Assembly: GCA_035480035.1 (NCBI GenBank)
Contig: DATIID010000005.1
Coordinates: forward strand, 1-45,589
From: Candidatus Saccharimonadales bacterium
GTDB taxonomy: Bacteria; Patescibacteriota; Saccharimonadia; Saccharimonadales; OMJO01
DNA: 45,589 bases
Direction: 5' to 3'
In this document: piece by piece, positions 1-39,993 of the stretch
Layout: every line of letters starts with the position of its first letter
Numbering within the stretch: position 1 is the first letter of the stretch
Notes under the pieces: model-generated
Database searches by the model: none
Seen by the model: the letters and a program-made list of their open reading frames with translations, nothing else
What the model was told of the DNA's origin: nothing
Program-made: the position numbers and the translations under genes

Positions 1-358
<358 letters not shown>

Positions 359-569
359 AATCTGTCACTCACCGAAGCGGGTGTCAGAAAAAGAATCTGT
401 CTCTGATCAGTCGAACATGACCATAAATGGTCAAATTACTGACTTAATTTCAAAACAATTCTCGTACTACCTTACAGTAATACTGAATCGACGTTGATTT
501 GCACTATTCAATTTTTAACGTTCACTCGCCTGGCCAAACAAATCAATGCCTCCAAAACGAGCTCATGCT

Positions 570-598
570 ATGATACAGTGCCGCAACAGATTATGCAA
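570..598 (-). promoter_or_regulatory. candidate rRNA operon promoter
   Basis: Minus strand reads TTGCAT (593-598), 17 nt, TATCAT (570-575), about 210 nt upstream of the 16S 5' end. Confidence 0.45.
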
Positions 599-640: not shown

Positions 641-1333
641 CTACTGTTTTGATAAATTGATAAACGTATCTCTCCATTTGTCGAACGTGACCTGGCTAAA
701 ACCACGATCCCCATCGTAAATTTGGGAAAATGGGAAAATCTCACTATCGGTTAATATTTTATAAGTTGCGCCATTTCTAATTTCATCAAAACTTGCAGAT
801 TCTTTGCTTCTTTGTTCCCAATCAAGTTCTTTCTCTAATGAGTCATATTTATCCATTGATTTATCGTCAGGTCTAAATAAACCAGTCCCGCGCAGGTCTC
901 CATTGCTATCTAACACATAGCCAACCACATGATAATAAACTTCTCTTTCATCGTAAACACCACGCCCACTACTTTCTCCATAACTCAATGTTACCGATGA
1001 TATTGATTTTTCTGCATATAAAGGCCACTCTGAAGGTCTAATTTTTTTGCCTCTCCGACCTATCGTTACACCTATTTCATTCTCAGTCAGCCAATTAGCC
1101 ATAGTTTTAGCATCGTTTCTAATTGTTTCGACAATCCTTTTCTGTACAGGCCTTTTTAGTTCATTCTCTCGATATATTCTTTCTAATCGAGTTAACCTTT
1201 CTCGTTTTTTATATTCAATAACCTGGGTCATCATATCAATACCAAATCTATGTTGTGCTACAGTCTCGGGTTTGGGAGCATTGATTACTTCCTCTATTAC
1301 AGCTTCAATTGGTTTAATGTCATCAAACTCCAT
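641..1333 (-). CDS. hypothetical protein, 230 aa (orphan array gene 1)
   Basis: Long ORF with an ATG start and its own promoter 9 nt upstream. No recognisable motif. Confidence 0.6.
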   Translation of the reverse strand: MEFDDIKPIEAVIEEVINAPKPETVAQHRFGIDMMTQVIEYKKRERLTRLERIYRENELKRPVQKRIVETIRNDAKTMANWLTENEIGVTIGRRGKKIRPSEWPLYAEKSISSVTLSYGESSGRGVYDEREVYYHVVGYVLDSNGDLRGTGLFRPDDKSMDKYDSLEKELDWEQRSKESASFDEIRNGATYKILTDSEIFPFSQIYDGDRGFSQVTFDKWRDTFINLSKQ

Positions 1334-1342
1334 AATTTGGTT

Positions 1343-1384
1343 ATTATACTAACTTACTTGATTTTTGCAAGCTTGAGCAGGATT
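1343..1384 (-). promoter_or_regulatory. promoter module with conserved upstream block (copy A)
   Basis: Minus strand reads AATCCTGCTCAAGC-TTGCAA (-35, 1365-1370), 16 nt, TATAAT (1343-1348), then 9 nt to the ATG. The block starts on the last base of the upstream stop codon. Confidence 0.6.
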
Positions 1385-1875
1385 CAGTCTTCAAACCTGT
1401 ATGTGTAATTATTGCCAACGGGGCTGGTGCAACGTATCACCTCATGGCCAAAGAAGCGCCATCTTTTAGCTGCTTCTGGACCACCTTCGCACGTACTCAA
1501 AGCCGCATCGGCGCGTTGCTGTTGCGTGTCAATTATTTGGCTCAATAACCGTTCACCTTCAGCGCTATCTCGTTCAGCTTTTTCGTTAGCACGTTGTAAT
1601 TTGTTAAAGCTTTTTTCTTCACGCGCTTTGGTCTTTTCCCAAGCCTTTTTTTCATCTTTACTGCCAAATTCATTAACCCACTCTTCATACTCTATCTTCA
1701 ATGGCAACTCATTTATTAGATCGCGAGTAGTATTATTTTCAATAATAGTAAAACTAAGGTCACTATGAGACTGTCTAGCTTCATCTAATTCGGTGCAGTA
1801 TCTTTCAGCAGTGGCTAAGCATTCAACCACAAATGGGCACTCCTTCAAACATTCGGGATTGACCATATCACTCAT
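1384..1875 (-). CDS. hypothetical protein, 163 aa, Cys-rich N-terminus (orphan array gene 2)
   Basis: ORF with ATG start. The N-terminus has a C-x3-C-x6-C-x8-C pattern and the middle is Lys/Glu-rich. No family recognised. Confidence 0.55.
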   Translation of the reverse strand: MSDMVNPECLKECPFVVECLATAERYCTELDEARQSHSDLSFTIIENNTTRDLINELPLKIEYEEWVNEFGSKDEKKAWEKTKAREEKSFNKLQRANEKAERDSAEGERLLSQIIDTQQQRADAALSTCEGGPEAAKRWRFFGHEVIRCTSPVGNNYTYRFED

Positions 1876-1883
1876 ATTTACAG

Positions 1884-1921
1884 ATTATCAAAGCTTGCCA
1901 AGTTAGCAAGCATGAGCAGAA
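1884..1921 (-). promoter_or_regulatory. promoter module, variant copy B
   Basis: Minus strand reads TAG(stop)-TTCTGCTCATGCTTGCTA ... TGATAATCT, then 6-8 nt to the ATG of the 163-aa ORF. Confidence 0.5.
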
Positions 1922-2332
1922 CTATTCGTGTTTTCCGATAGGTTTAGTTACAAAGTAGAAATCTGGAGTAAAACTAGAACCAATTAGAATCATGTCGATC
2001 ACTTGTCCTGCAATACTGCCAACATGTTTACCATAACGAAGCCATTCATCCCCAGGATCAAACGCAAAACGCTTATCTGTCCGTTCAAAAATAGCCGGAA
2101 CTGAGTCCTCTATCAGACCTAAAGGATTGGGACGGACTGGATTTTCAGCAGCAGCTTGGGCATCTCCTAACCCAGTATATAAAACATACTTAATCGGCAT
2201 AAATTGAGTCAAATCAAGCTTTAGTTCACTTCTTTCATTGCGTCCTGGGAAAGTACCCCCAGTGACAATTACGCTTTCACCGGGTTCCATTACTTCAAAT
2301 GTCTCTACAAACAAATCTCTTTCAGGTGGCAT
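1922..2332 (-). CDS. hypothetical protein, 136 aa (orphan array gene 3)
   Basis: ORF with ATG start and a GGAG Shine-Dalgarno about 8 nt upstream. No family recognised. Confidence 0.55.
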   Translation of the reverse strand: MPPERDLFVETFEVMEPGESVIVTGGTFPGRNERSELKLDLTQFMPIKYVLYTGLGDAQAAAENPVRPNPLGLIEDSVPAIFERTDKRFAFDPGDEWLRYGKHVGSIAGQVIDMILIGSSFTPDFYFVTKPIGKHE

Positions 2333-2353
2333 ACATGACTCCGTCGAACAGTT

Positions 2354-2395
2354 ATTATCCTTTTAAATTGAATTTATGCAAGCTTGAGCAGGATT
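2354..2395 (-). promoter_or_regulatory. promoter module with conserved upstream block (copy C)
   Basis: Minus strand reads AATCCTGCTCAAGC-TTGCAT (2376-2381), 16 nt, GATAAT (2354-2359). The 19-nt block is identical to copy A and overlaps the stop codon of the upstream ORF. Confidence 0.6.
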
Positions 2396-3002
2396 ACTGG
2401 GGCTTATAGCCGTAAACATCTTCGATCTCAGCATGTCTAAAACCTATAAGCTCGGGGATCACTGCCGCTTGTATAAGTTGATCGGCAAATTGTTTCAAAT
2501 TATGCCGCTGACTTTGACCCTTAAATTTAGCGATATGAACCTGGGTAATATAATCGTTTTCTTCCCAAGTGGTTTGAGGTGTACCAGGTATATCATAGTA
2601 TCGATTAATCAGGCTTTGAGTGGCTAGTCGCTCAGCCTTAACCGCAGGATTACGAGTAGCAATCGTTAATGAAGTTTCGGTCTCACCGCGGTGACATAAC
2701 TCATGGAGTGACCAAGGCCAAGTTGGAGCTCCTATATCCTTATCAACGCTTGCAGGTAAACAATCGTCTAAATAATCAGCCAGGTTTTCAGCATCATCAT
2801 CTATTAGTCTTAGGCCATAGCGACTATGGAAGGAACGGACTTCGCCTGGTCCGACAATAGTGGCTCGAGGTTTGTGTCTAAGTTCAACATGTTCAATGCC
2901 AGTTTGCCCAATTATCTTCTGGGCCGCACTTAACCAACGATCACCGAGTGTCTCAACTTCTCTAAATACTCTTACGCTGGGTATTGATTCTGGGTTAGGC
3001 AC
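2394..3002 (-). CDS. hypothetical protein, 202 aa (orphan array gene 4)
   Basis: ORF with a GTG start only 7 nt after a -10 box. No family recognised. Confidence 0.5.
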   Translation of the reverse strand: MPNPESIPSVRVFREVETLGDRWLSAAQKIIGQTGIEHVELRHKPRATIVGPGEVRSFHSRYGLRLIDDDAENLADYLDDCLPASVDKDIGAPTWPWSLHELCHRGETETSLTIATRNPAVKAERLATQSLINRYYDIPGTPQTTWEENDYITQVHIAKFKGQSQRHNLKQFADQLIQAAVIPELIGFRHAEIEDVYGYKPQ

Positions 3003-3009
3003 CCAGAAA

Positions 3010-3047
3010 AATATAAACTAGTTTCAGATTTTTGCAAGCATAAGAGG
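3010..3047 (-). promoter_or_regulatory. promoter module, variant copy D
   Basis: Minus strand reads CCTCTTATGC-TTGCAA (3032-3037), 16 nt, TATATT (3010-3015), then 7 nt to the GTG start. Confidence 0.5.
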
Positions 3048-3059
3048 TTTTAGTTTGGT

Positions 3060-3521
3060 TTATTGTGACGGTAATTCTTCAATGGTTACGTTTGAGTCAT
3101 ATTCTTGGGCCTCTAATAACCCATCGATTTCTTTAAGTGTTTGGCTGACTTCATACCAGTTAGGCATTGGACTAAAGTGGTTATGGCCTGAGATTATTTC
3201 CCTAAAAGGTAACTTCATACGGCTGTTAAATACCCAGTTAGCCTCTTCCACATCACCTAAAGACCACTCGCTTTTACTTGCTACATAATAGGACCTAGTT
3301 GGGTCGTGTTCAAAAGTGTAAGTATGTTTGTGCCGTTTAGACGTATCAGCGATGCTAGTAGGCTGTTCATGAGTAATCACTACGCCAGTTGTAAAGTGAA
3401 TGGCCAGTTCGCCCAGCTCATCAATAATCTTGTCTCTAAAGAATACTAGCTCTTGATCATTGGCAACTTGCTCCATTTCAGAGAGTAAAATTCGTTGGTA
3501 AGGTGTTAATCGTTCAGACAT
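3060..3521 (-). CDS. hypothetical protein, 153 aa (orphan array gene 5)
   Basis: ORF begins 7 nt after the stop of the 70-aa ORF, so the two are probably co-transcribed. Confidence 0.55.
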   Translation of the reverse strand: MSERLTPYQRILLSEMEQVANDQELVFFRDKIIDELGELAIHFTTGVVITHEQPTSIADTSKRHKHTYTFEHDPTRSYYVASKSEWSLGDVEEANWVFNSRMKLPFREIISGHNHFSPMPNWYEVSQTLKEIDGLLEAQEYDSNVTIEELPSQ

Positions 3522-3528
3522 AAGACTT

Positions 3529-3741
3529 TTACTCTAAAACTAAATCAATTTGGTTAAGAATAACTTCCGCAGCCAGGTGAGCTCTGGAAATTTCGTCAGC
3601 TGATTTTGAGTTACCAAAAGTCAGATCTTTATCTGTTGAAGATAAGCCATCAACATTATGAATGTGGTTTGTAGCTGAATTAAAAGTCAATTCCGGCAAA
3701 CCAAACTCAGGAAAATCACCACTGGGTACTAAAGTTCTCAT
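3529..3741 (-). CDS. hypothetical protein, 70 aa (orphan array gene 6)
   Basis: Short ORF whose ATG lies 7 nt after a TAAAAT -10 box (leaderless geometry). Confidence 0.45.
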   Translation of the reverse strand: MRTLVPSGDFPEFGLPELTFNSATNHIHNVDGLSSTDKDLTFGNSKSADEISRAHLAAEVILNQIDLVLE

Positions 3742-3748
3742 TTACCAT

Positions 3749-3790
3749 ATTTTAACATGCTTACACTGTTTAAGCAATAGTAGGATGGCG
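3749..3790 (-). promoter_or_regulatory. promoter, degenerate copy E of the module
   Basis: Minus strand reads TAA(stop)-CGCCATCCTACTA-TTGCTT (3772-3777), 17 nt, TAAAAT (3749-3754). Confidence 0.45.
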
Positions 3791-4345
3791 TTAGATGGCG
3801 ACGCCGACGTCTTCGAGTTTTTGAGTTAGCTTGTGGTCGAGGTGCCAGCCATCCATCTCATAAGCTAACATCGATAATACCTGATGGCCGAGATTTCGCT
3901 CGACACTTGATAGTTCTTCTTCGGGATGTTTGACGATTCGATGATAGCCAATTTCTGGCTGCTTGATCTCTGAGAAGGCGGGGTGTGGAGTTTTGATATC
4001 TGGGGTCTGAAAAGCTATAGTTGCTCGGTCAAGACGCAAAAATTTAAGATCTGATTCACCTTCTTTAATCTTAAAGCGAGCCTCAGATTTGGGTGGCATG
4101 ATATATTGACCACGAGATTTCGACATTGGCATTAATCCATCGCCATGATACGAGGCGGCTGTTCGGACAATGGCATTTCCTAAAGTACTTTTTAGTTCGC
4201 CGATTGTTTGAGAATGATGAACTTCCAAAAGTGTTGGCAGCCATAAATGAGGCAAAAAAGAACCTGAACGGTTTTCGAATATATAGCGGTCTTTACCGTT
4301 AACTTTGGCTAATTCTAATTTAGGCATTTCTAATGATACTGACAT
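3791..4345 (-). CDS. hypothetical protein, 184 aa (orphan array gene 7)
   Basis: ORF with ATG start. A TTGCCC-17-TTAAAT promoter candidate lies in 4395-4425. No family recognised. Confidence 0.55.
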   Translation of the reverse strand: MSVSLEMPKLELAKVNGKDRYIFENRSGSFLPHLWLPTLLEVHHSQTIGELKSTLGNAIVRTAASYHGDGLMPMSKSRGQYIMPPKSEARFKIKEGESDLKFLRLDRATIAFQTPDIKTPHPAFSEIKQPEIGYHRIVKHPEEELSSVERNLGHQVLSMLAYEMDGWHLDHKLTQKLEDVGVAI

Positions 4346-4367
4346 ATTTACCTGCTTAGATAATTGT

Positions 4368-4382
4368 TTGTCGAATCGACAA
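4368..4382. promoter_or_regulatory. perfect 15-nt palindrome TTGTCGA-A-TCGACAA
   Basis: Lies between the candidate promoter and the start codon of the 184-aa ORF, downstream of the gyrA stop. No U-run follows, so it is either an operator or a 5'-UTR hairpin. Confidence 0.35.
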
Positions 4383-4434
4383 GACTTGGTATTTAATCAC
4401 GTATACAGATTGAGGGCAACCTTAGTTGGTTCAA

Positions 4435-7062
4435 TTATTTCTTAGATTTTGGTTTGGTTTCGGGTTTAGCTTTAGTTTCTTCAGGTTTTTCGGTGGTTTC
4501 CTCTTCATCTTCATCAATTGTCTTCTCAACTAAAGCTAACGAAGCAACGGTGTCGCCATCATTTAGACGCATTATTCTAACACCTTGAGTAGCGCGGCCA
4601 AGTGATGGAATATCCTTCAGTCCAAGACGGATTGTTTGCCCATGCGTCGAAATAATGATCAGTTCTTGAGTATCATCTTTAAGTGTTTTAACACCCATAA
4701 GGTTACCGGTTTTACTGTTAACCACTGCTGAACGGATACCAACTCCACCACGAGCATGCGCTGTAAACTGAGAAATCTTGGTTCGTTTTCCATAACCGTG
4801 TTGGCTAATCACAAAAATACTAGAACCTTCTTCGACAATGTCCATGCCAATAACTTGGTCGCCGGTGCGCAGCCGAATGCCACGAACACCACGCGAAACA
4901 CGGCCCATTGGACGAGCATCTTTTTCATGAAATCGGATGGCTTGGCCTTGCGACGTCGAAATGACAATTTCATTGTTACTGTCGGTTTGACGAATCCATT
5001 TTAGTTCGTCACCATCGTCCAAATTGATAGCAATTAAGCCAGTTTGACGAACGTTTTGATACTGCTCAAATGGCGTCTTCTTCACAACACCTCGGATGGT
5101 ACACATTAGCAAATTACCGTCTTTAGACGTCTTAGAGACATTTATGACTGAGCTGACTACTTCTTCGGGTTGCAGTTGTAGTAAATTAACCAACGCAACA
5201 CCTTTAGCGTTCAAACCCACCGCTGGGACCTCATAGGTTTTTAGACGGAAAACTCGGCCTTTGTTGGTGAAGAACAGTAAAAAGTCGTGAGTGCTGGCAT
5301 AAATCACGTGATCAATCACGTCTTCTTCTCTGGTAGACATGCCTCTTTTGCCCTTTCCACCCCTGTTTTGGCGTCGATATTCGGCAATCTGAGACCGTTT
5401 GATGTAGTTTGCTGACGTAAGTGTTACAACAACCTGCTCGTCAGGAATCATGTCTTCATCACTCATTTTGCCAAGTTCACCGACCACAACTTTTGTTCTA
5501 CGATCATCACCAAACTGCTTTTTAATGTCCAGTAGTTCATCTTTGACGATTTTAAGAATGCGTTTTTCGTCAGCCAGAATAGTTTCAAGCTCAGCAATTA
5601 TTTTGATTAGCTCAGCCAGCTCGTCTTCAATTTTCTTACGCTCTAGCCCAGCAAGTGTGCGCAGCTGCATCGCCAAAATGGCTTTGGCTTGAATTTCGGT
5701 CAGTTTGAACTTCTTGATTAGGTTTTCTTGGGCTTCATCAGTGGTTTGGCTAGCCCTAATGGTTTTAATTACTTCGTCGATGTGATCAAGCGCCGTCTTA
5801 AGCCCTTCTAAAATATGAGCGCGCTCTTTGGCTTTGCGCAGTTCAAACTCAGTCCGGCGACGAACAACAACCTGACGGTGCTTAATATATTCGCCCAAGA
5901 TGTCTTGAAGCCCCAGAACACGCGGTTGAATACCTTCAATCAGGGCCAGCATATTGTAGTGAACTGTCAGCTGCAGCGGTGTTAATTTGTAAAGTTGGTT
6001 GAGCAACTTTTTTGGGTAAGCGTCTCTTTTAAGATCAATCACCAAACGGACATTGCCGCGGGCCGATTCGTCACGCAAATCACTAATACCACTGATTTTT
6101 TTGTCTTTGTAGAGATCGGCGATCTTTTCGAGTAGACCGGCTTTATTAACACTATATGGGATTTCGCTAATAATAATCTGTTGTTTGCCTTTGGCAGTTT
6201 CTTCAACTGAGGCAACGCCGCGAACTACTACGCCACCACGACCAGTCGCAAAGGCAGTTCTAATGGAATCACGGCCATAGACTACTCCACCGGTTGGGAA
6301 ATCAGGACCCTTGACGTGTTCCAGTAAATCGTCCAGCGTGGCGTCCGGTTTATCAATCAGAGTTACGGTAGCGTCAACAATTTCCGACAAGTTGTGTGGT
6401 GGAATATTAGTGGCCATACCGACGGCAATACCGACTTGTCCGTTAATTAACAGATTGGGTAGTTTGGCCGGCAAAACTTCTGGCTCTTGCTCACTCCCGT
6501 CGTAGTTATCGCGAAACGGCACGGTTTCTTTATCAATATCTTCAAGTAGCGCGCCGCCAGCTTTAGCCATACGAGCCTCGGTGTAACGTTGAGCAGCTGG
6601 CGGATCGCCATCCATCGAACCAAAGTTACCTTGCCCGTCGACTAACAAGTAACGGGTTGACCAGTCCTGGGCTAGTCGAACCATAGCATCATAAATCGCT
6701 ACGTCGCCGTGCGGATGGTATTTACCCATGACATCGCCGGTTATCCTTGCGCTTTTAACGAACTTAGAGCCCGATTTCCAGCCGTTTTTATCCATGGAGT
6801 ATAAAATACGTCGGTGTACTGGCTTGAGGCCGTCACGGACGTCTGGCAAGGCTCTAGCCACAATCACGCTCATCGAGTAGCGCAAGTAGCTATCTTCCAT
6901 GACGTTCTCAACACTGCGTAGCTCCAGAGTTTTACTGTGGTCACTTTTAATTATCTGAGTGTCATCAATCAGACTGGTTGGACTAGCAATAATCTCACCC
7001 TCGGCCGGATCAATTGGATCAACAACCGGCTGGTCTTTAACTTCGTCAATGTCGTCAGCCAT
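4435..7062 (-). CDS. gyrA: DNA gyrase subunit A
   Basis: 875 aa with GKYHPHGD and [10 protein letters not shown] (active-site Tyr region) motifs and C-terminal repeated beta-pinwheel-like segments. An acidic/Lys-rich tail and a ~35-aa N-terminal extension are present. The start lies 1 nt after the gyrB stop. Confidence 0.97.
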
Positions 7063-7063
7063 T

Positions 7064-9031
<1,968 letters not shown>

Positions 9032-9162: not shown

Positions 9163-10464
9163 ATGTTCAAAAAATTACTCAGCCATCTACCCTTCAACCC
9201 AAGCCTGATTAACCAGTTGTCATTCTATGCCAAGCGGGTTCACCGTGAGGCCTTTGTGCGCAGTGTCGGCTTTGCGTTGATGATTTTAGCTATGCTGGTC
9301 CAATTATTTGCCGTGATTTCACCACCCCAGCCCAGTCTGGCCTATTCGTCAAATGATTTGATTGGCGGCGGCTTTGCTAACCAGGAGCAAGCTGTTGAAC
9401 ACTGTAATAATGACGATTTTGATTTCCATGATGTCCTTGGCCATTTTCGGATTAGCTGTGGCGATTTAGCCCGAGCTTCCACCAAAGAAATTAAAGCCGA
9501 CGATTATGGCGGCAAACTTTATACCTATGGCCGCAAAGCTGTCGGCGATGAAGATCCACGCACTCACAAACACACCGACGAAGGTTCAATCGAGGTTAAG
9601 GGTGAAAATTATTATGGCCGCAAACTAACCAGTTGGGACCGCGACGACCACAAGAAATACAAGGCTCTGGTCGGTAAAACCGACGACGGCAAAGATTTCG
9701 TAGTGCTCTACAACTGCGGTGGCGTTAGCGTCCCTGAAAAACCCAAACCAACGCCACCGCCAGAGCCACCCAAGCCCCATAAACCACCAACCACCAAAGA
9801 CCAAGATAAGTGTCCGTACTTGCCTGGTCTGCAAACCAAATCCGAAGATTGTAAGCCCTGTCCCCAGGCTCAGAATGATAATGATGACCTGGCTTGCTTG
9901 AGCTTTTCTAAAACGGCCGCCAACCTAACCAGCCGCATCGATAATGCCAGCGGCCTGACAGCTAAAGGCGGTGACGAAATAAAGTACACCTTACGTGTCC
10001 ACAATAGCGGTAAGGTCAAAGTTACCAAGTATCTAATCGAGGAAAATTTGGGTGACGTTTTGGAATACGCAACGCTCAATAATACCGGTAGTGGTAGTCT
10101 GAACCAAAACAATTTGAGCTGGTCGAAAACCGATATCCAAGCCAGTCAAACCGTCAGCAAAACTTTCACGGTTAAGATTAAAAACCCAGTGCCGAGCACA
10201 CCAGTCTCTAAATCTGACCCAAGTGCCTACGACCTAATTATGACTAACGTCTATGGCAATACCATCAACATCAAATTGCCGGCTAGCGCCGCCAAGGTCA
10301 CTGAAGCAACAATGACTAGCTTGCCCGACACTGGTCCGGGCCCAGGCATATTTATCGTGTTTATTATTACCTCAATCATTGGCTATTTCTACTATCGAAG
10401 TCGTTTGATGGCCAAAGAACTGGACATAGTGAGAGAAGAATTTAACAGTAGCGGGGGCTATTAA
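9163..10464 (+). CDS. LPXTG-anchored surface protein with Pro-rich linker
   Basis: N-terminal signal/anchor helix, a PKPTPPPEPPKPHKPP linker and a beta-rich repeat-like domain. The C-terminus has LPDTG, a hydrophobic helix and YRSR (sortase sorting signal). Confidence 0.75.
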   Translation: MFKKLLSHLPFNPSLINQLSFYAKRVHREAFVRSVGFALMILAMLVQLFAVISPPQPSLAYSSNDLIGGGFANQEQAVEHCNNDDFDFHDVLGHFRISCGDLARASTKEIKADDYGGKLYTYGRKAVGDEDPRTHKHTDEGSIEVKGENYYGRKLTSWDRDDHKKYKALVGKTDDGKDFVVLYNCGGVSVPEKPKPTPPPEPPKPHKPPTTKDQDKCPYLPGLQTKSEDCKPCPQAQNDNDDLACLSFSKTAANLTSRIDNASGLTAKGGDEIKYTLRVHNSGKVKVTKYLIEENLGDVLEYATLNNTGSGSLNQNNLSWSKTDIQASQTVSKTFTVKIKNPVPSTPVSKSDPSAYDLIMTNVYGNTINIKLPASAAKVTEATMTSLPDTGPGPGIFIVFIITSIIGYFYYRSRLMAKELDIVREEFNSSGGY

Positions 10465-10465
10465 C

Positions 10466-11020
10466 ATGAGTGAATATATGCCGGAGCGCCTGGAGCGCGA
10501 ACCAAAACCAGCCGAAGCTGAGCACCACGAACACCAGCGAGCACACCATGAGCACAGTGGTAAAGTCGAGAGCCGACCGAACCTCGATAAATTACGACAC
10601 CAAATTGCCCACGAAGCTCGAGGTTCTAAAGAAGTCAGCGTCGGCGAAAAAGAATCACCTGCTGACAACCAACCAATTACAGTTAATCGTGACTTGATAA
10701 ATAGTTCCTACCACCGTAGCCTGAAGTCAGTTCAAGCTAAATTAACTGGTATTGACCGCTTGGCCAGCAAGGTTATCCATAAACCGACTGTCGAGCAAAT
10801 TAGCAATGTCGGCGCCCAAACGGTGGCTAGACCATCAGGCATAATTGGTGGCGCCAGTGGTGCTCTAATTGGTTCACTAGCCCTGCTAATGATGGCCAAA
10901 CATTACGGCCTAACCTACAACTACTTGATGATTTTTCTCTTTTATACTGGCGGTTTTGTAATCGGTTTACTAATTGAGATTATTTATCGGCTATTTCGAC
11001 CTCGCCGACAAAATATTTAG
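10466..11020 (+). CDS. hypothetical membrane protein, 184 aa
   Basis: ATG lies 1 nt after the previous stop (coupled). His/Glu-rich N-terminus and two C-terminal hydrophobic helices. Confidence 0.6.
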   Translation: MSEYMPERLEREPKPAEAEHHEHQRAHHEHSGKVESRPNLDKLRHQIAHEARGSKEVSVGEKESPADNQPITVNRDLINSSYHRSLKSVQAKLTGIDRLASKVIHKPTVEQISNVGAQTVARPSGIIGGASGALIGSLALLMMAKHYGLTYNYLMIFLFYTGGFVIGLLIEIIYRLFRPRRQNI

Positions 11021-11023
11021 AAA

Positions 11024-14000
11024 CTAGCTATCAAATAACTGAACGTGGCCTTCTCGGTCAATCTTTATAGTGTCGTCCGGGTCAACGTGGCTATCGTCGC
11101 GGTGAGCAATTGGTTTGTGGAGCGGCTTGTCGGGCTCTTTATCGATGTCGGCTGGCTTCTGAGCGCCACCTAAACTAGCTTCTAGTTGATTAGCTAAAGC
11201 CGAAATTTCTTGGCTACTACCGGCTGTTGACGGTTGGGTTGTTGAAGCCTGAGTGGCTGGATTAGCAGCTGGGTTGAGACTTGGCATTGATAATGAAATC
11301 GGTGGATCTGAGGCAAATGGTGAAGTTGAGGTTCTGGACGCTGGTGCTTGAGCCGATAGATTTGGCGGTAGCGTTGCGGTGGCTGAAGCACTCGGTATGG
11401 CCGGTGCACCAGCCGCGGGACTATTAACAAATGGATTGGTTGGCCCACTTGTAGTATTGGTTGGACTGGCTGGATTCTGGCGACGTTTAGACAGCCACTC
11501 GTCGAGAAATGACGAACCACTCGCTGGCGGCCGTGGCGTAGCTGGCATACCACTGGCCGCGCCGGTTGGTGGTAAGCGATTTGGCCCACTTGGTGCCCCT
11601 GCACCATAGGGTCCGGCGACAGTCTGTGGTGTTCGGGGTTCCTCTTTGGTAGCTAAACGAGCAAAAATTTCCTTTTCGACTTGGGCTTTCGGTCGACCAT
11701 ATTTAGCAGCTGACAACTGCTTCAGGGCATCAGCTAGCTCTGGGTTTGGCGTACCAAGCGGCGGTAGGGTCGCCATACTAAACGGCTGAGTTGGCACCCC
11801 GCCAATCAAAGTTCTAGTAATCGTGTTGTAGTTTGGTACCCGTAATAAGTCTTCGCTGTCAAAGGTTGGCTGAAAGTAGCGCGACAGCGAATCAACGTCC
11901 TGTTGACCAACCCGGAAAGCCACAATTGTACCCATGTTACCGAAGACCGCATCGCGAATTTCTTCAGTTAACTGAGTCGTAAACTGGTTGGCCACAATTA
12001 AGTTTAGTCGGTATTTTCGAGCTTCGGACATGATGGTAGCAAAGCTATCTGTCGAGAAGTTCTGGAACTCGTCGACGTAGAGACAAAAGTCAACCCGCTC
12101 GGATTCCGGAATGGTCGAGCGACTCATGGCGGCAGCTTGGAATTTCATTACGAAAATCATACCCAATAACATCGAGTTCAACTCGCCGGTGCGGCCCTTG
12201 CTTAAGTTAACCAGCAGTATTTTCTTATTGTCCATAATTTCGCGCAGGTTGAACGAGCTCTTGGTCTGACCTATCACATTACGCATCATTTCGTTAGCCA
12301 TAAAAGCACCGAATTTACTGACAAACCAACCCAGCACCTCACTCTTGTGATAGTCGCTGGTACTGGCCATTTCCTTGTTCCAGAAGTCCAACACCATCTG
12401 ATCGGTGACATGAGCCAGCTTTTGCTTGGCGTATTTGTTATCTGTAAAGACTTTGGGTATGTCAATGAACGTGGCACCGTCTGGATCAGCCATGAGCGTT
12501 AATGCGGCCATTCTAAACCAGTGTTCATAGCGCGGACCAATAATGCCTTGATGCGTTGGGTCATACAGCTTATACAGCATGTTAATGGCTTCCTGAATCA
12601 AAAAGTCTTTCTGTTCCGGCGTGTGGAATTCAAACAAGTTCAGACCCATCGGATAGTCCATTTCACCAGGGCTAAAGTAAATTACATCCTCGGTGCGTTC
12701 TCGCGGCACCATCGCCAGTAAGCGGTCGACGGCATCACCGTGCGGATCGACAAAGGCAAAACCGTCACTATTAAGCATGTCCTGCAAGGCCAGATTCTCT
12801 AAGTAAGTTGACTTACCAGTACCAGTCTGGCCGACGACATACATGTGACGTTGTCGGTCGCCCAAGGCTAGCTTAATTGGTTTTTTAACACCTCTAAATA
12901 GGTTGTAGCCGAGTAGCAAACCCTCTTCTGAAATGTTACGCGGCCCATCGACTTGTTTGGAAGCTTGACGTTCCAACTGGCTGGTCGGAATATTGCTTTG
13001 ATCTGGAAAATGAAACAGTGTGGCTAACTCCACCGAGTTAAGCACATTAGATGTGTCTTCTTGGGGGAAAAACCGCAGAATGTAGGCTGTGACGAAACGC
13101 TCAATATCTTTGGCGGCCGTAAACTTAAAGCCGTTTTTACCCGGCGAATCAAACAGCGCAAAGGTCGCTACCACGTTATTTAGGATGGCTTGGGCTTTAG
13201 TTGGCTCATCAGATGAGGCAATTACTCGAATTAGTGTTTCAAAGCCCGGATGGCGCGTCTTAGCGTCAATTGAATCAACAATATTTTGATCAAGTGAGGT
13301 CAGCTCTTTTTTATCACCACCTTTTTCTTCTGGTGGTTTCCATAACGCAAAAAACAGCTGGCTAAACCACCAAAAAGCATGCTGACTGGTGGTTTTTTTC
13401 TTAACACCAGTACGCTTATGCTTGGCTACTTCATGGGCCTGGGTTCGCCAATCACTAGTCGCTGGTCGAATCATAATTTGTATACCGGCGCCGTCATCTT
13501 TATCCAGGCTGGACAAGGCGTTCAAAACCGACTGCATCGAGTCACGTTTCAAATCTTGATAGGTGGCAATCGGATAAGCAAAACTCTCTTTTAGCGTCAG
13601 TTCACCGCCAACTGTGCCATTAATTTTACCGACCGGGCTGAAGATATTGTGCTCTGGCACCTCTTCCATTCTGGCCGCCGGATAAGAACTGACCACCGCT
13701 TGCTTGACGACTTCCACCAAGACTACCGGTACCGCAGCGTAAAAGTTGACCACGCCGTTAGTGCCAACAATTTCAAAGGCAACGTGACGCTGACCATAAA
13801 ATTGACGCTTAAAACCCTTCTCGAAGGTGCTGGCGATGATGCCGTACAGGGTTTCAGCTTTAGAAATCGTTTCTTCAGCCACATCGCGAACATCACGTGT
13901 ACCAATTTCCGTATCTTCGCTAGACGGTGGCAAATGGATTAATAATGGTACCATTTTCAGACCACGCTCGAAGTTCTTTTGCTGGCGGAAAACCGTCCGC

Positions 14001-14077
14001 ACTTGGATAAACACAAAGGGCGCAGCAATTAAGGCTAAGCCAACGAAGGTTCCTAAGACTACAAAGATTACCAACAT
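11024..14077 (-). CDS. TraD/VirD4/FtsK-HerA-like P-loop membrane ATPase with long disordered C-terminal tail
   Basis: 1017 aa with an N-terminal TM helix, Walker A VVGQTGTGKST and Walker B-like LYVDEFQNF. About 200 aa of P/A/S/T/G-rich low complexity lie at the C-terminus. Confidence 0.7.
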   Translation of the reverse strand: MLVIFVVLGTFVGLALIAAPFVFIQVRTVFRQQKNFERGLKMVPLLIHLPPSSEDTEIGTRDVRDVAEETISKAETLYGIIASTFEKGFKRQFYGQRHVAFEIVGTNGVVNFYAAVPVVLVEVVKQAVVSSYPAARMEEVPEHNIFSPVGKINGTVGGELTLKESFAYPIATYQDLKRDSMQSVLNALSSLDKDDGAGIQIMIRPATSDWRTQAHEVAKHKRTGVKKKTTSQHAFWWFSQLFFALWKPPEEKGGDKKELTSLDQNIVDSIDAKTRHPGFETLIRVIASSDEPTKAQAILNNVVATFALFDSPGKNGFKFTAAKDIERFVTAYILRFFPQEDTSNVLNSVELATLFHFPDQSNIPTSQLERQASKQVDGPRNISEEGLLLGYNLFRGVKKPIKLALGDRQRHMYVVGQTGTGKSTYLENLALQDMLNSDGFAFVDPHGDAVDRLLAMVPRERTEDVIYFSPGEMDYPMGLNLFEFHTPEQKDFLIQEAINMLYKLYDPTHQGIIGPRYEHWFRMAALTLMADPDGATFIDIPKVFTDNKYAKQKLAHVTDQMVLDFWNKEMASTSDYHKSEVLGWFVSKFGAFMANEMMRNVIGQTKSSFNLREIMDNKKILLVNLSKGRTGELNSMLLGMIFVMKFQAAAMSRSTIPESERVDFCLYVDEFQNFSTDSFATIMSEARKYRLNLIVANQFTTQLTEEIRDAVFGNMGTIVAFRVGQQDVDSLSRYFQPTFDSEDLLRVPNYNTITRTLIGGVPTQPFSMATLPPLGTPNPELADALKQLSAAKYGRPKAQVEKEIFARLATKEEPRTPQTVAGPYGAGAPSGPNRLPPTGAASGMPATPRPPASGSSFLDEWLSKRRQNPASPTNTTSGPTNPFVNSPAAGAPAIPSASATATLPPNLSAQAPASRTSTSPFASDPPISLSMPSLNPAANPATQASTTQPSTAGSSQEISALANQLEASLGGAQKPADIDKEPDKPLHKPIAHRDDSHVDPDDTIKIDREGHVQLFDS

Positions 14078-14081
14078 CTAA

Positions 14082-14552
14082 TTACCCTTCCGCTGAATCG
14101 GTTGCGGTTTTAATATCCTTATTGAAACGCTTCTTAATGTATTCAGCTTTGTAGCGGCCAATTTCTTGATTCTGGACACGTGGATCAGCTTTGGTACTTT
14201 CAACGATTCGTTTAGCCCTTTCAACCCATTCTTTTTCGATTAAATCATTGTCGTCGGCCATAGTTGGCGTCGATGAAACGGGGGTGGTTGGAGCATTGGC
14301 TATCGGTGTCATTGGTGTATCAATGGGCGTTGAATCGGCTGTCAAATCAAATGGTGTAGCGATGTTTAACTGGTTAGTTGGTTGAGTAATTATCGGTTGA
14401 GTAATTGACGAACCGTGCTCAACAGACTTAGCACCACCCAGTTCCGATATAATGTCGTCAACATTAGCGCTTTCCACTTTATAAGGTACCGACTCACTCT
14501 GTGGTTCCGGCAAATTCAAAGCTTCGCCTGGTGAATTCAAACTGTCACTCAT
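14082..14552 (-). CDS. hypothetical protein, 156 aa, upstream partner of the ATPase
   Basis: The stop lies 4 nt before the ATPase start. A P/T-rich middle is followed by a charged helical C-terminus. Confidence 0.55.
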   Translation of the reverse strand: MSDSLNSPGEALNLPEPQSESVPYKVESANVDDIISELGGAKSVEHGSSITQPIITQPTNQLNIATPFDLTADSTPIDTPMTPIANAPTTPVSSTPTMADDNDLIEKEWVERAKRIVESTKADPRVQNQEIGRYKAEYIKKRFNKDIKTATDSAEG

Positions 14553-17615: not shown

Positions 17616-18047
17616 TTATCGATTAAAAATTATTAAAAGTAACCAAACCATAAGTATTATTCCAAGAGTGGTAATAAAGATCGTAGTGAGCGGATTAAAC
17701 TTATTGCCTTGTGACTTTTTTAAAGGTTTTGTACTGACTTTTATCTGAGCTAATGTAACCACAGAGCCCAAAAATAGAACGAAAAATAGCCATAAGATTG
17801 GCTCGCTAAAGGCTAATAGTAGCGTATAAAGTGCAAATATCGTTCTGGTAGTGACAAAATATACGTATGTCAGTTCTTGAAGTGTCTCTTTTAGAGTTTG
17901 TCGAATAAAAAGCGCTAGAATCACAGCGTCAGCAACAGCAAGAATTGAAATTATTGCTAAAAATGGCCCCCAAAAGTACGGAATAGCCAACAGATCGCCC
18001 AAAATATTTAAAGCGATAAACCCAATAGCAAGTTGTTTCTTATCCAT
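17616..18047 (-). CDS. integral membrane protein, 143 aa
   Basis: Four hydrophobic helices. No family recognised. Confidence 0.55.
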   Translation of the reverse strand: MDKKQLAIGFIALNILGDLLAIPYFWGPFLAIISILAVADAVILALFIRQTLKETLQELTYVYFVTTRTIFALYTLLLAFSEPILWLFFVLFLGSVVTLAQIKVSTKPLKKSQGNKFNPLTTIFITTLGIILMVWLLLIIFNR

Positions 18048-18066
18048 TTGTTAATTAGTATAGCAA

Positions 18067-18104
18067 TTCTTATGCTTGCATAAGTTGTGACATATACTTA
18101 TATT
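18067..18104 (+). promoter_or_regulatory. promoter module, variant copy F
   Basis: TTCTTATGC-TTGCAT (18076-18081), 17 nt, TATATT (18099-18104), then 14 nt to the ATG. Confidence 0.5.
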
Positions 18105-18118
18105 TCAAGAACTAGATT

Positions 18119-18502
18119 ATGAGCAATGCCGAATTACCATCTCCAAGAGTTTTATTATTTCACCCCAATGAAAGAACTTTAAATATGGCATACAAAGGTA
18201 GCCAATTAGCAGGATGGCAGTCTCTGCCATATGATGATCCTCGTCTAGCTTTTGAAGAGTTAGATGAAAATATAAACGCACTTGTTGCAGGCATGCCTAA
18301 TTTGAGATCCATGGGCGAAAGAGCTGCAGTAGAGCCATTATTTTATAAATCTACTGAGTTGGATATTCCGCGAGCAATAGTGTCGTCATCTCGAGATGCA
18401 AATACATTTGTTCGCGACGGCTCACTTGACATAGTTATACCTACTTCATCAGTAAGGTCCGGTGTAACAAAATGGTTACTCGATTTAGCAGCTAATCAAT
18501 AA
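18119..18502 (+). CDS. hypothetical protein, 127 aa
   Basis: ORF with ATG start and no Shine-Dalgarno. The N-terminus RVLLFHPNERT faintly resembles a degenerate receiver domain (weak). Confidence 0.5.
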   Translation: MSNAELPSPRVLLFHPNERTLNMAYKGSQLAGWQSLPYDDPRLAFEELDENINALVAGMPNLRSMGERAAVEPLFYKSTELDIPRAIVSSSRDANTFVRDGSLDIVIPTSSVRSGVTKWLLDLAANQ

Positions 18503-20164: not shown

Positions 20165-20174
20165 ATATATTGCT

Positions 20175-20686
20175 GTGGGTTATCCGTAAGCCGGGTTCTG
20201 TTTTAGCTAACCATCTATCTAGACTAGCAATTGCTCACTAATTCAAGCGGGTTTAACGACGAACTCAGGCGGGAAACCTTTGATGAGCACATCTCCTTGC
20301 AGCGGACAGGGTTTACCTCTTCATCACGTCACCGTGACAAACTGTGGGCTCTTGCCCCACTCGTTTCACCCTTACCCAGCACCTTACAGGGCTTTACACT
20401 TGAGGCTAGTGCAAGGAAGAAGTGAAGCGCGCATCGAGATGTATGAATAATACTTCGAGGAGCACTACAGCTTCTGACGAAGCAATAGTCCAAGAGCACG
20501 AGCGGAGTTTGAGCTCTGCTCAAAGCAGGCTCGTGCGATGTATAGAACTGAAAGGTACTGGGCGGTTTCGTTTCTGTGGCACTTTCCCTAAGATTACTCT
20601 CGGTTGCCGTTAGCAACTGTCTCTCCCTACGCTGCCCGGACTTTCCTCCGACTCATTGCTGAGCCGGCGGTTAGCCGATAACCTAG
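20175..20686 (-). ncRNA. rnpB: RNase P RNA, bacterial type A-like, ~510 nt
   Basis: Minus strand carries GAGGAAAGTCCGGGC (P4 5' strand, near 20632-20650), CACAGAAACGAAACCGCC, GGTAAGGGTGAAA and ACAGAACCCGGCTTA (P4 3' strand, near 20184-20200). P1 pairs GGTTATC with GATAACC at the two ends. Confidence 0.88.
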
Positions 20687-23466: not shown

Positions 23467-24081
23467 TTATATCCGCGACAAGACGTTGAGTAAAGATTGG
23501 TTTATGTTAATCAAGATGTCGAAAAAGCCAGGAAAGCCCAAAACTAGAGCGAAGATAATAAAAATTCCGAATTGTTCTAACTTAGCCATAATCTCCTGAA
23601 GTGCCTCTGGTGCAAAAGCGTACAGCAGTCGTGAGCCATCGAGCGGCGGAATTGGAATCATATTAAAGACAAATAAGGCAACGTTGATTTGAGTAAAATC
23701 AATCAAGAAGGTTGGCAAAATCACGCCGTTACTAAATTTCAGTAAAAGCGCGCCGATAATCGCCATGGCTAAGTTGCTTAAGGGTCCGGCAATACCGACT
23801 AACGCAGCGCCAAATTCATCAAATTTAACGCGGTTCGGGTTAAATGGTACGGGTTTCGCCGCTAAGAGTGGGACATGAAACAAAACAAGAGTTATAACCG
23901 GCAAAAGTAAAGTCGTAAACGGATCAATGTGACGCAGTGGATTAAGACTGATCCGTCCTTCCCGTTCAGCTGTGTCATCGCCTAGCCAATGGGCAGTAAA
24001 GGCGTGCATTGCTTCATGGACCGTCATGGCTATCAAAATGGCCGGAATAATATAAATTAAGTCGGATGTCTGAAAATTCAT
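23467..24081 (-). CDS. site-2 protease family (M50) zinc metalloprotease
   Basis: HEAMHAF (HExxH) and NMIPIPPLDG motifs in a polytopic membrane protein. Confidence 0.8.
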   Translation of the reverse strand: MNFQTSDLIYIIPAILIAMTVHEAMHAFTAHWLGDDTAEREGRISLNPLRHIDPFTTLLLPVITLVLFHVPLLAAKPVPFNPNRVKFDEFGAALVGIAGPLSNLAMAIIGALLLKFSNGVILPTFLIDFTQINVALFVFNMIPIPPLDGSRLLYAFAPEALQEIMAKLEQFGIFIIFALVLGFPGFFDILININQSLLNVLSRI

Positions 24082-24995: not shown

Positions 24996-25619
24996 TTACT
25001 CCTCTTCCTTTGATTTTTTATTATCTGGTTTAGGCGTCAGTAGAAACTGCTTGTCGACCAAGATCTGCATTTTAGAATTCAAAACATTTGATAAAAACCG
25101 ATCGTTGACCTGTTTGCGATACTTGTATTCACCCAGCGGCATCGAGGTATAACGGATTTCCTTGCCTTCTTTGGCTTCTAAGTCACTAACGTAGTTGCTC
25201 AACTTGGTTTGGTTAATGTCGCCGACAACCAAGAAGTCAATACCACCAGTTTCATCACGCGTAAATTGACCGGTGTAAATGGCCAGTTCAACGTGGCCGA
25301 GCGAATTAATTTCGGTGTTCTCGGCGGGTACGGCAGCTTTAGCAGCTTTGGCGGTTGGTTTGACGCCTTTACCAAAAATTATCGATAACTCAGAATAGTA
25401 TTCATATTTTTGATCGACTTCATAATATAGGCGGTTGTTGTTGGTATCAGATGAAATAATTCCAATGCTCAGCAAATTAGCCAGTTCACGACGAACTGAG
25501 TTGATCTGCTCGTCAATCTTACGGGTAATTTCGCGCACGTAAAAAGACCGGTTGGGGTTGCTATAAAACAACTGCAACAGCTTAACTCGAGTCTTACTCC
25601 CAAAAAGTTGCTCAATCAC
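24996..25619 (-). CDS. winged-helix (ArsR-like) DNA-binding protein with C-terminal extension
   Basis: N-terminus SKTRVKLLQLFYSNPNRSFYVREITRKIDEQINSVRRELANL has a typical wHTH pattern. Confidence 0.5.
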   Translation of the reverse strand: MIEQLFGSKTRVKLLQLFYSNPNRSFYVREITRKIDEQINSVRRELANLLSIGIISSDTNNNRLYYEVDQKYEYYSELSIIFGKGVKPTAKAAKAAVPAENTEINSLGHVELAIYTGQFTRDETGGIDFLVVGDINQTKLSNYVSDLEAKEGKEIRYTSMPLGEYKYRKQVNDRFLSNVLNSKMQILVDKQFLLTPKPDNKKSKEEE

Positions 25620-39435: not shown

Positions 39436-39993
39436 ATGAGTGAACAAAACAGACACCCCGATAACATAGAAGAACTTTTGCACCAGGAAGCTGTTGAAAT
39501 TTTTGGGCCGGAACGTATGGCTCAACTCCAGGGTCACGAAGCTACTGAAGAATCAACCCAAGAACTCATTAACGCTGTGTCGGCTCTGTGTGCTGAACCT
39601 GTATCAACAGAGCATCATGGACTTCATTTCCGTGACCTTCAAAGAAGTAAGGGCAAGCCTTTGCACATAAAGACAAACCCAACTGGTATAACAGGATTTG
39701 GCGATAATCAAGCTGATGCCGCCACTGTGAGTATAAGCAATTTAAAAAGTGGCAGAGCCCCCCGACCTAGACACTACCCTCCATTTGGATATGAATTTCA
39801 AGAGTCAATTTTTGTTGACCATGACGGAGTTGCAAAAATAGGACGTGCTGTTTGGGCACGCCTTGGAAACGTTACACAACCGAGTGCAGTAAAACGTGCT
39901 AGTGAAGATGAAATTCAGGAGGCTCTAGACATCCTTGCTGACGCAGTTCACTACCATGATGAATTAAATGCAAAGACAGAATCTGCAAAATAG
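39436..39993 (+). CDS. hypothetical protein, 185 aa
   Basis: TTGACT-17-(TGG)TAATAT promoter ends 6 nt before the ATG (leaderless geometry). Confidence 0.55.
   Translation: MSEQNRHPDNIEELLHQEAVEIFGPERMAQLQGHEATEESTQELINAVSALCAEPVSTEHHGLHFRDLQRSKGKPLHIKTNPTGITGFGDNQADAATVSISNLKSGRAPRPRHYPPFGYEFQESIFVDHDGVAKIGRAVWARLGNVTQPSAVKRASEDEIQEALDILADAVHYHDELNAKTESAK

Follow-up and report, generated by a model that had tools for sequence, protein, structure and literature searches.

Among the closest described arrangements are transfer hot spots, or flexible islets, between core genes, a concept reportedly set out by Oliveira and colleagues in 2017, and integron arrays, whose cassettes are typically promoterless. 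Saccharibacteria have tiny genomes, depend on a host bacterium and carry lineage-specific genes that are mostly unexplained. Here, we examined an islet of such genes in a 45.6-kb contig (DATIID010000005.1; hereafter the window, meaning the whole stretch of DNA analysed) of Candidatus Saccharibacteria (TM7), belonging to a soil lineage. On the minus strand, the window runs from gyrB through gyrA, seven open reading frames (ORFs) and a promoter-like site to the 5′ end of the 16S rRNA gene. All on this same strand, the seven ORFs fill the 4,077 nucleotides (nt) that separate the gyrA stop codon from the 16S gene; in order from gyrA they encode 184, 70, 153, 202, 136, 163 and 230 amino acids (aa) and are named here by these lengths (o184 to o230); successive gaps, beginning with that after gyrA, are 89, 49, 7, 57, 61, 46 and 50 nt. 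The initial annotation had described seven same-direction ORFs of 70–230 aa between the 16S promoter and gyrA, a description that the ORF coordinates confirm, and had taken them for a hypervariable accessory locus and a candidate undescribed system. Our results favour the former over the latter: the seven genes are probably the lineage-specific cargo of an insertion or replacement hot spot that extends from the gyrA stop to the rRNA promoter in a clade of soil Saccharibacteria.

The evidence that carries this reading is a comparison of the interval across relatives, which the initial annotation had called for. The survey covered 80 related loci in which the gyrA stop and the 16S start both lay on the contig; ORFs of at least 60 aa were counted and clustered by BLAST, with the seven ORFs of the window included. 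The order gyrB–gyrA–16S held in about 40 loci from GTDB genomes (L002-L043) and in the metagenome loci L103-L182 with both ends present. Spacer length ranged from 167 to 4,896 nt with a median of 406 nt: 41 spacers were no longer than 450 nt (promoter and leader only), 23 measured 451–1,500 nt, 12 measured 1,501–3,000 nt and 4 were longer. The 88 spacer ORFs fell into 77 clusters, 69 of them singletons, and 64 of the 81 ORFs in the spacers of relatives were co-directional with gyrA and 16S. Flanks are thus constant while content varies, as the hypervariable-locus claim would have it, and the same flanks enclose unrelated families or empty sites in many relatives, which is what defines a hot spot. 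Even among the closest relatives (85–88% identity over the gyrA C-terminus), the site ranged from empty to occupied by up to four unrelated genes, and the L097/L129 spacer held eight genes within 4.9 kb, including a homologue of o163 (33% identity; gyrA 82%).

About a third of the 46 non-redundant proteins of at least 100 aa encoded at this site in relatives carried Pfam domains, the rest none. The domains included GDPD, PPDK-like, CofD, inositol monophosphatase, SurE, DUF212, peptide deformylase, class-V aminotransferase, fatty-acid desaturase, WhiB, TrmB, a Phd-GNAT fusion, C39-like peptidase, patatin and alpha/beta-hydrolase. Ordinary enzymes occupy the spot in relatives as often as orphans do, which argues for a general insertion hot spot and against a dedicated effector locus. 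Two of the cargo proteins (L009 8877-9608 and L014 13594-14151) are related to each other and share a Phd/YefM antitoxin-like N-terminus; the L009 copy, the one of the two that was scanned, also scored a GNAT acetyltransferase domain and so appears to be a single-chain antitoxin–toxin-like fusion. A literature search on Saccharibacteria hypervariable islands and leaderless mRNAs returned nothing usable.

No significant match to the seven proteins was found in Pfam, PHROGs, NCBIfam or PADLOC, in keeping with the initial annotation, which had found no assignable motif. The sole PADLOC match was to a fragment of DrmD (E 0.0014, 14.9 bits) in a coiled-coil region, leaving none of the seven assigned to an anti-phage family, and PDB sequence searches returned nothing for o202 and o230 singly or for four family profiles. 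An exhaustive HMMER search of the seven concatenated proteins against 1.84 billion representative proteins (E ≤0.001) yielded 86 proteins, six of them self-matches, corresponding to about 21 homologous clusters for o184, 1 for o70, 2 for o153, about 35 for o202, about 15 for o136, 5 for o163 and 0 for o230. All homologues were annotated as 'hypothetical protein', came from soil or rhizosphere metagenomes or from Saccharibacteria metagenome-assembled genomes (MAGs), and were 20–45% identical to the window proteins, except for o70 (66%). The term orphan used in the initial annotation therefore stands in that none of the seven has a named family, but six of them belong to small families and o230, which found only itself, is the sole true orphan. 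As had been proposed, the proteins do not resemble one another: all-against-all phmmer detected no mutual similarity among the seven, nor did profile–profile comparison of the o202, o184 and o136 families (three pairs) reveal any relationship. Divergence was steep in comparison with the flank: in L090, gyrA is 89% identical whereas o70 and o184 are 66% and 44% identical, and in L097 the corresponding values are 82% for gyrA and 33% for o163. The cargo is shown to come from six or more families that are unrelated to one another, narrow in distribution and quick to diverge.

The seven ORFs are real genes, and their products are small, soluble and for the most part acidic. With a codon log-odds score for which 21 other window genes served as the training set, they reached 0.17–0.31 per codon in frame (0.237 for o230), compared with 0.14–0.46 for the training genes, and all five alternative frames were negative for every one of the seven. 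Homologues that are similar in length and share conserved columns exist for six of the seven, and the two proteins modelled with AlphaFold 2 (AF2), o202 and o184, reached a mean predicted local distance difference test score (pLDDT) of 94. That a long non-coding leader or spacer of the rRNA genes happens to contain these frames by chance, as their failure to match any curated family might suggest, is already refuted and carries a negligible probability: coding scores on a par with those of host genes, negative scores in the other frames, homologous families and confident models all speak against it, and an Rfam scan found no match inside the interval. At least four soil metagenome runs independently yielded the identical DNA, which also occurs in a second MAG; contigs run from gyrA across the islet into the rRNA leader at flat read depth, so the assembly is not chimeric. 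A Kyte–Doolittle scan found no hydrophobic N-terminus or transmembrane segment in the seven proteins (maximum 19-residue mean ≤1.34; isoelectric points (pI) 4.6–6.8), and their polar N-termini agree with the absence of signal peptides noted initially.

Contigs from two soil runs (X1 and X3) join the rRNA leader (518) directly to the gyrA 3′ region (4559), skipping ~4 kb. We considered this joint as an empty-site allele of the same strain and rejected it, as only 20 letters match on one side and the depth differs; these contigs probably represent co-occurring relatives with a short or different spacer.

Expression of the islet would be modular. A scan of its minus strand for TTGC[AT][AT]-N15-18 followed by at least four of six letters of TATAAT returned exactly four matches, all intergenic and none inside a coding region, lying directly upstream of o70, o202, o136 and o230, with spacings of N16-17 and −10 boxes matching at least 5/6. 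Each begins 1–30 nt from the preceding stop codon. Throughout the rest of the 45.6-kb window, on both strands and with −10 boxes of at least 5/6, only four further matches occurred, one of which is the rRNA promoter. A weaker site precedes o163 (TTGCTA, 1904-1909; 16-nt spacing; TAATCT, 1882-1887), ending 6 nt before its ATG. The five separate promoters of the initial annotation are thus recovered at the sequence level as four strong sites and one weaker one. Its statement that only the 70-aa and 153-aa genes share a promoter likewise agrees with the 7-nt interval between the o70 stop and the o153 start, from which we take o153 to share the o70 promoter and, probably, to be translationally coupled to it. 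Promoter scans of the 89-nt gap upstream of o184 found no convincing promoter.

The o230 and o136 promoters have in common a 45-nt module (family D1) that is 78% identical, with CTGCTCAAGCTTGCA as an exact 15-nt core; upstream of o202 and o163 the module recurs in weaker form. The upstream extension of the o230 promoter, CTGCTCAAGCTTGCAWAAAT, is repeated exactly at 2372-2391. It was considered as a recombination site or operator and rejected: it aligns as an extension upstream of the −35 box, and another promoter of the window (18073-18083) carries a close variant, so that we read it as part of a shared promoter module and not as an attC-like site. The short distances from the −10 box to the starts of o70, o202, o230 and o163 (7, 7, 9 and 6 nt) predict leaderless or near-leaderless mRNAs, whereas o136 and o184 have Shine–Dalgarno leaders (GGAG and AGCAGG). 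Among the islet spacers, only the hairpin between o136 and o163 was significant (−11.7 kcal/mol, z −2.96) and is possibly a weak terminator; the fold energy of the gyrA-to-o184 spacer was not significant (z −1.6). With a single significant hairpin and no strong terminators, transcript read-through from gyrBA and into rrs is likely. The islet sequence was contained in none of the RNA runs searched. Coordinates of the genes, spacers and promoter-like sites are collected in Table 1.

Table 1. Genes, spacers and promoter-like sites of the gyrA–16S interval and its flanks, in window coordinates
Feature	Position	Strand	Description
gyrB	7064..9025	-	
gyrA, conserved upstream flank	4435..7062	-	875-aa ORF; identity to gyrA from Saccharibacteria MAGs and contigs 72-89%
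gyrA-to-o184 spacer	4346..4434	-	7-bp hairpin 4367-4383 without U-tract; AGCAGG Shine-Dalgarno-like box 4351-4356
o184	3791..4345	-	184-aa ORF
o70 promoter-like site	3749..3777	-	TTGCTT-17-TAAAAT; -10 ends 7 nt before ATG, leaderless type
o70	3529..3741	-	70-aa ORF, acidic, pI 4.6
o153	3060..3521	-	153-aa ORF
o202 promoter-like site	3010..3037	-	TTGCAA-16-TATATT; -10 ends 7 nt before GTG
o202	2394..3002	-	202-aa ORF, GTG start
o136 promoter-like site	2354..2381	-	TTGCAT-16-GATAAT; then 21-nt leader with GGAG Shine-Dalgarno box
o136	1922..2332	-	136-aa ORF
o136-to-o163 spacer	1876..1921	-	8-bp hairpin 1893-1911 overlapping weak promoter-like site
o163	1384..1875	-	163-aa ORF
o230 promoter-like site	1343..1370	-	TTGCAA-16-TATAAT, best in window; -10 ends 9 nt before ATG
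o230	641..1333	-	230-aa ORF
rRNA operon promoter-like site	570..598	-	TTGCAT-17-TATCAT; conserved leader downstream
16S rRNA gene 5′ end, conserved downstream flank	1..358	-	Rfam SSU_rRNA_bacteria, 305.7 bits

Structure prediction with Foldseek searches, proposed initially for all seven proteins, was carried out for o202 and o184, and gave a known fold for the former and no structural match for the latter. The o202 model, built on a 37-sequence alignment, was of high quality (pLDDT 93.9, predicted template modelling score (pTM) 0.88), and its Foldseek matches were human Usb1 (E 4e-4, probability 1.00, template modelling (TM) score 0.57–0.62), yeast Usb1, a Burkholderia phage phosphodiesterase, Acb1 (a nuclease that counters the cyclic oligonucleotide-based antiphage signalling system, CBASS), Arabidopsis CPDase and E. 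coli LigT. On this basis, o202 is confidently predicted to adopt the two-lobed 2H-phosphoesterase fold of LigT, Usb1 and Acb1. Both catalytic HxT/S motifs are absent from the family, in which no alignment column of the 37 sequences has more than 38% His, and o202 is therefore not filed as a 2H enzyme; the family alignment matched neither a 2H Pfam family nor a PDB sequence. The putative motif-equivalent positions, mapped by secondary-structure order and a LigT sequence, read R46-A-T-I and H156-I-A-K in o202, and the two central strands of the family follow the patterns [K/R/Y]-A-[T/S/N]-I and [R/W/H]-[L/I]-[A/G]-[R/K]. R14, G53-E54, P83, P96, E124-R125 and P183 are conserved. A role as a non-catalytic ligand binder, putatively of nucleotides or RNA ends, is our best but tentative guess, with somewhat less in its favour than against. 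The GTG start is supported by homologues that align from residue 1. A HELCH sequence (HExxH) was considered as a zinc-protease motif and rejected, as it is not conserved in the family. A word-based profile search retrieved four members of the family only, and the literature on the phosphodiesterase of phage BCSR5 offered nothing usable.

The model of o184, a soluble protein, was equally good (pLDDT 94.5, pTM 0.90), and found no structural match in the PDB (best E 0.19, TM ≤0.25) or in BFVD. Its homologues are 26–43% identical and conserve W35 (invariant), T47, Q51, R90, a GYQTPD motif and H135, and we propose, with low confidence, a new fold bearing a conserved His/Arg/Thr/Trp set. The window protein itself departs from the family consensus at strongly conserved positions (Q51L, Y112F, V126E and YPGF168-171 to HLDH), which hints at relaxed constraint or a changed function. 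In o163, four cysteines (C9, C13, C129 and C149) are invariant in a six-member family alignment and are laid out as an N-terminal C-x3-C-P and a C-terminal C-x19-C with a charged helical middle between them, an arrangement that suggests a putative metal site. The o136 family, for which neither Pfam nor PDB yielded a match, conserves a GGTFPG motif and several arginines. The single homologue cluster of o70 likewise lies just after gyrA in L090-L093, and o70 may, with low confidence, be a small acidic partner protein. The two homologue clusters of o153 are distant and lie in other genomic contexts.

Whether the seven genes act as a unit was addressed by locating ten homologues on their contigs and by running family-specific hidden Markov models (HMMs) on the loci. 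Relatives of o202 occur in a co-directional orphan array beside a Ham1-like gene in a Saccharibacteria MAG (L100), between NUDIX and P-loop kinase genes (L102) and among sortase and cell-wall genes (L099); a relative of o184 follows dnaE (L101), and relatives of o153, o163 and o136 lie in further contexts (L094, L096 and L183). The HMMs found no second family member in these homologue loci and none in 80 gyrA loci from GTDB (L001-L080), and a single match, to o163, in 80 metagenome gyrA loci (L103-L182). The exception is L090-L093, from a closer relative (gyrA 86–89%), in which gyrA is followed by homologues of o70 and o184 and an alpha/beta-hydrolase gene: the same two families in the same place, in swapped order. 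That the islet is one coherent system, be it of defence, counter-defence or effector–immunity type, would account for this recurrence, for the tight packing of seven co-directional genes of unassigned function, for the operon-like 7-nt spacing of o70 and o153, and for a fold in o202 common to the anti-CBASS nuclease Acb1 and a phage phosphodiesterase. Yet, o70 and o184 apart, each family stands singly in every other context examined, each gene or pair appears to have its own promoter, PADLOC found no system and the slot is filled by unrelated enzymes in relatives. We therefore regard a coherent system as very unlikely, and the undescribed system envisaged by the initial annotation is not upheld. 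Long arrays of small orphans do seem to recur in these genomes: the array in L100 (739-12214; Ca. Saccharibacteria MAG GCA_028289245.1) comprises ~20 co-directional small genes of 42–246 aa, with one Pfam hit only (Ham1p_like) and one gene of the o202 family.

Two further explanations concern where the genes come from and where their products act. The islet could be the remnant of a mobile element or prophage that has decayed, for instance early or 'moron' genes that stayed behind on excision; small acidic orphans with apparently individual promoters, lower GC content at third codon positions (GC3), variable presence among relatives and a TraG/VirD4-like ATPase gene 6.6 kb away would all fit. 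Against such an origin, the ORF list, the Rfam/RNA scan and a repeat search revealed no integrase, transposase, recombinase, structural gene, tRNA (also as a target), terminal repeat or flanking direct repeat in the islet, which thus lacks the hallmarks of a classical integrative island. Phage signal was likewise absent from PHROGs, from tblastn against 50,697 phage records and, for o184, from viral structures in BFVD; codon usage is host-like, and the homologues examined sit in ordinary chromosomal contexts on Saccharibacteria-like contigs. We consider a decayed element highly improbable. Composition says little more: the islet was initially described as more AT-rich than the flanking gyrase genes, and its GC content of 0.402 is indeed lower than theirs (about 0.45–0.50) and than that of the rest of the window (0.443), but the difference is modest, placing the islet at the lower end of what other 3.8-kb segments show (0.397–0.486) without making it an outlier, and is carried mostly by third codon positions (GC3 0.25–0.38 in the islet ORFs, mostly 0.39–0.52 elsewhere). 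Alternatively, the proteins could be effectors that reach the host bacterium through non-classical export (type IV secretion or pili) and diverge rapidly as a result. Their divergence is indeed far faster than that of neighbouring housekeeping genes, their distribution looks restricted to Saccharibacteria-like contigs and a coupling-protein homologue lies in the window; however, they carry no signal peptide, transmembrane segment, recognisable secretion signal or effector domain, nothing ties them to the secretion ATPase and plain metabolic enzymes occur at the same site in relatives. Exported effectors consequently have only a small chance of being the explanation. The effector, anti-host or immunity functions suggested in the initial annotation find neither support nor contradiction in these results.

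Under the hot-spot reading that we prefer, related genomes keep other genes, or none, in the same slot, and genes would bring their own expression signals, with promoters at or just after the preceding stop and o70, o202, o230 and probably o163 translated from leaderless or near-leaderless mRNAs. Published genetics points to natural competence in Saccharibacteria. The most economical account of cargo turnover is homologous recombination across the two highly conserved flanks once DNA has been taken up, with integrases or transposases presumably not the driver. A bolder version, which we think unlikely but worth stating, is that the gyrA–16S junction is a dedicated cassette-exchange site of transformable Saccharibacteria for self-promoted modules, with cargo engaged in the interplay with host or phage, for example by sequestering nucleotide signals. 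Mostly leaderless single-gene modules would then be swapped via two of the most conserved sequences of the genome, and the cargo would include the histidine-less 2H-fold family, the new fold of o184, a Cys4 protein and o70 as a promiscuous acidic partner.

Several observations weigh against the hot-spot reading. The genomes compared are different species (gyrA 76–89%), so turnover is seen at a rate per speciation and not per strain, and all other copies of the islet are 100% identical, giving no signal in the ratio of nonsynonymous to synonymous substitutions (dN/dS) or in presence and absence within the species. Small GC deviation and host-like codon usage would be expected after long residence or with donors of the same clade, and do not prove transfer. 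The islet promoters and leaderless starts are consensus matches only, and a generic promoter scan of a 9.5-kb region found 22 sites compared with 16.2 ± 4.0 in shuffles, which is not an enrichment. Recombination as the mechanism is something we infer, and at least one pair, o70/o184, may be functionally linked.

Some further features of the window deserve mention. Window gyrA is 72–82% identical to that of Saccharibacteria MAGs in GTDB and up to 89% identical to that of soil metagenome contigs. Downstream of the rRNA promoter and ahead of the 16S gene (480-530, minus strand), a leader box, CGTTAAAAATTGAATAGTGCAAATCAACGTC, is conserved in L002-L023 and L097 and may be an antitermination or processing element. 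A leaderless-type −10 spacing also occurs at about ten other genes of the window: a TATAAT-like box ends 6–10 nt before the start, with no Shine–Dalgarno sequence, for example upstream of 14082-14552(-), 17616-18047(-), 23467-24081(-) and 24996-25619(-), and the same geometry is seen on the plus strand at 39436-39993(+), 41997-42998(+) and 43330-44319(+), whereas other window genes have clear GGAG/AGGAG leaders. Leaderless mRNAs may thus be common in the source organism. Two further small genes devoid of Pfam matches (143 and 127 aa; 17616-18502) diverge from a 71-nt spacer with a TGCTTGCATAA-type −35 region like that of the islet promoters. Upstream of gyrB (9163-14077) lie genes for a DUF11-repeat surface-type protein (433 aa), a 184-aa orphan and a 1,017-aa ATPase with weak TraG-D_C, DUF87 and AAA_22 matches, a candidate VirD4/TraG-like coupling protein. 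The class A RNase P RNA (20171-20686, minus strand) spans 516 nt compared with a model of 367 positions, and must therefore have insertions totalling ~150 nt over the bacterial consensus.

In conclusion, the stretch from the gyrA stop to the rRNA promoter offers a bounded and easily recognised place of accessory-gene exchange that should be useful when genomes or populations are compared, and might also serve as a neutral insertion site in genetics. The analysis also provides three or four new protein families with alignments, high-confidence models for two of them, including a 2H-fold family lacking the catalytic histidines and a fold without a known analogue, and sequence-level evidence for common leaderless-type promoters in the source genome. 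At the level of single genes, o202 shares its predicted fold with the 2H superfamily (LigT/ThpR, CPDase, Usb1 and Acb1), but lacks the HxT/S tetrapeptides and any 2H Pfam or PDB profile match, and conserves R14, E124, R125 and prolines instead. The o70/o153 pair resembles a type II toxin–antitoxin module in having a small acidic 70-aa gene followed 7 nt on by a larger gene under one promoter; it differs in showing no homology to toxin–antitoxin or defence families in Pfam, NCBIfam or PADLOC, and in L090 the o70 homologue precedes an o184 homologue instead. As a whole, the islet recalls integron cassette arrays in its co-directional, unrelated, small and mostly unknown genes with content that differs among relatives, but there is no adjacent intI and there are no attC-type inverted repeats, the spacers are 46–61 nt with one hairpin, and the modules appear to carry their own promoters. 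Its closest likeness is to transfer hot spots, with which it shares fixed core flanks, diverse lineage-specific cargo, many empty sites and the frequent absence of mobility genes. It departs from them in its size of at most 5 kb, its position wedged between a stop codon and an rRNA promoter, its setting in a reduced-genome Saccharibacterium and a cargo that seems to consist wholly of single-gene promoter–ORF modules. The islet thus adds a new and clearly delimited case to a known category, that of hot spots of gene turnover flanked by core genes.

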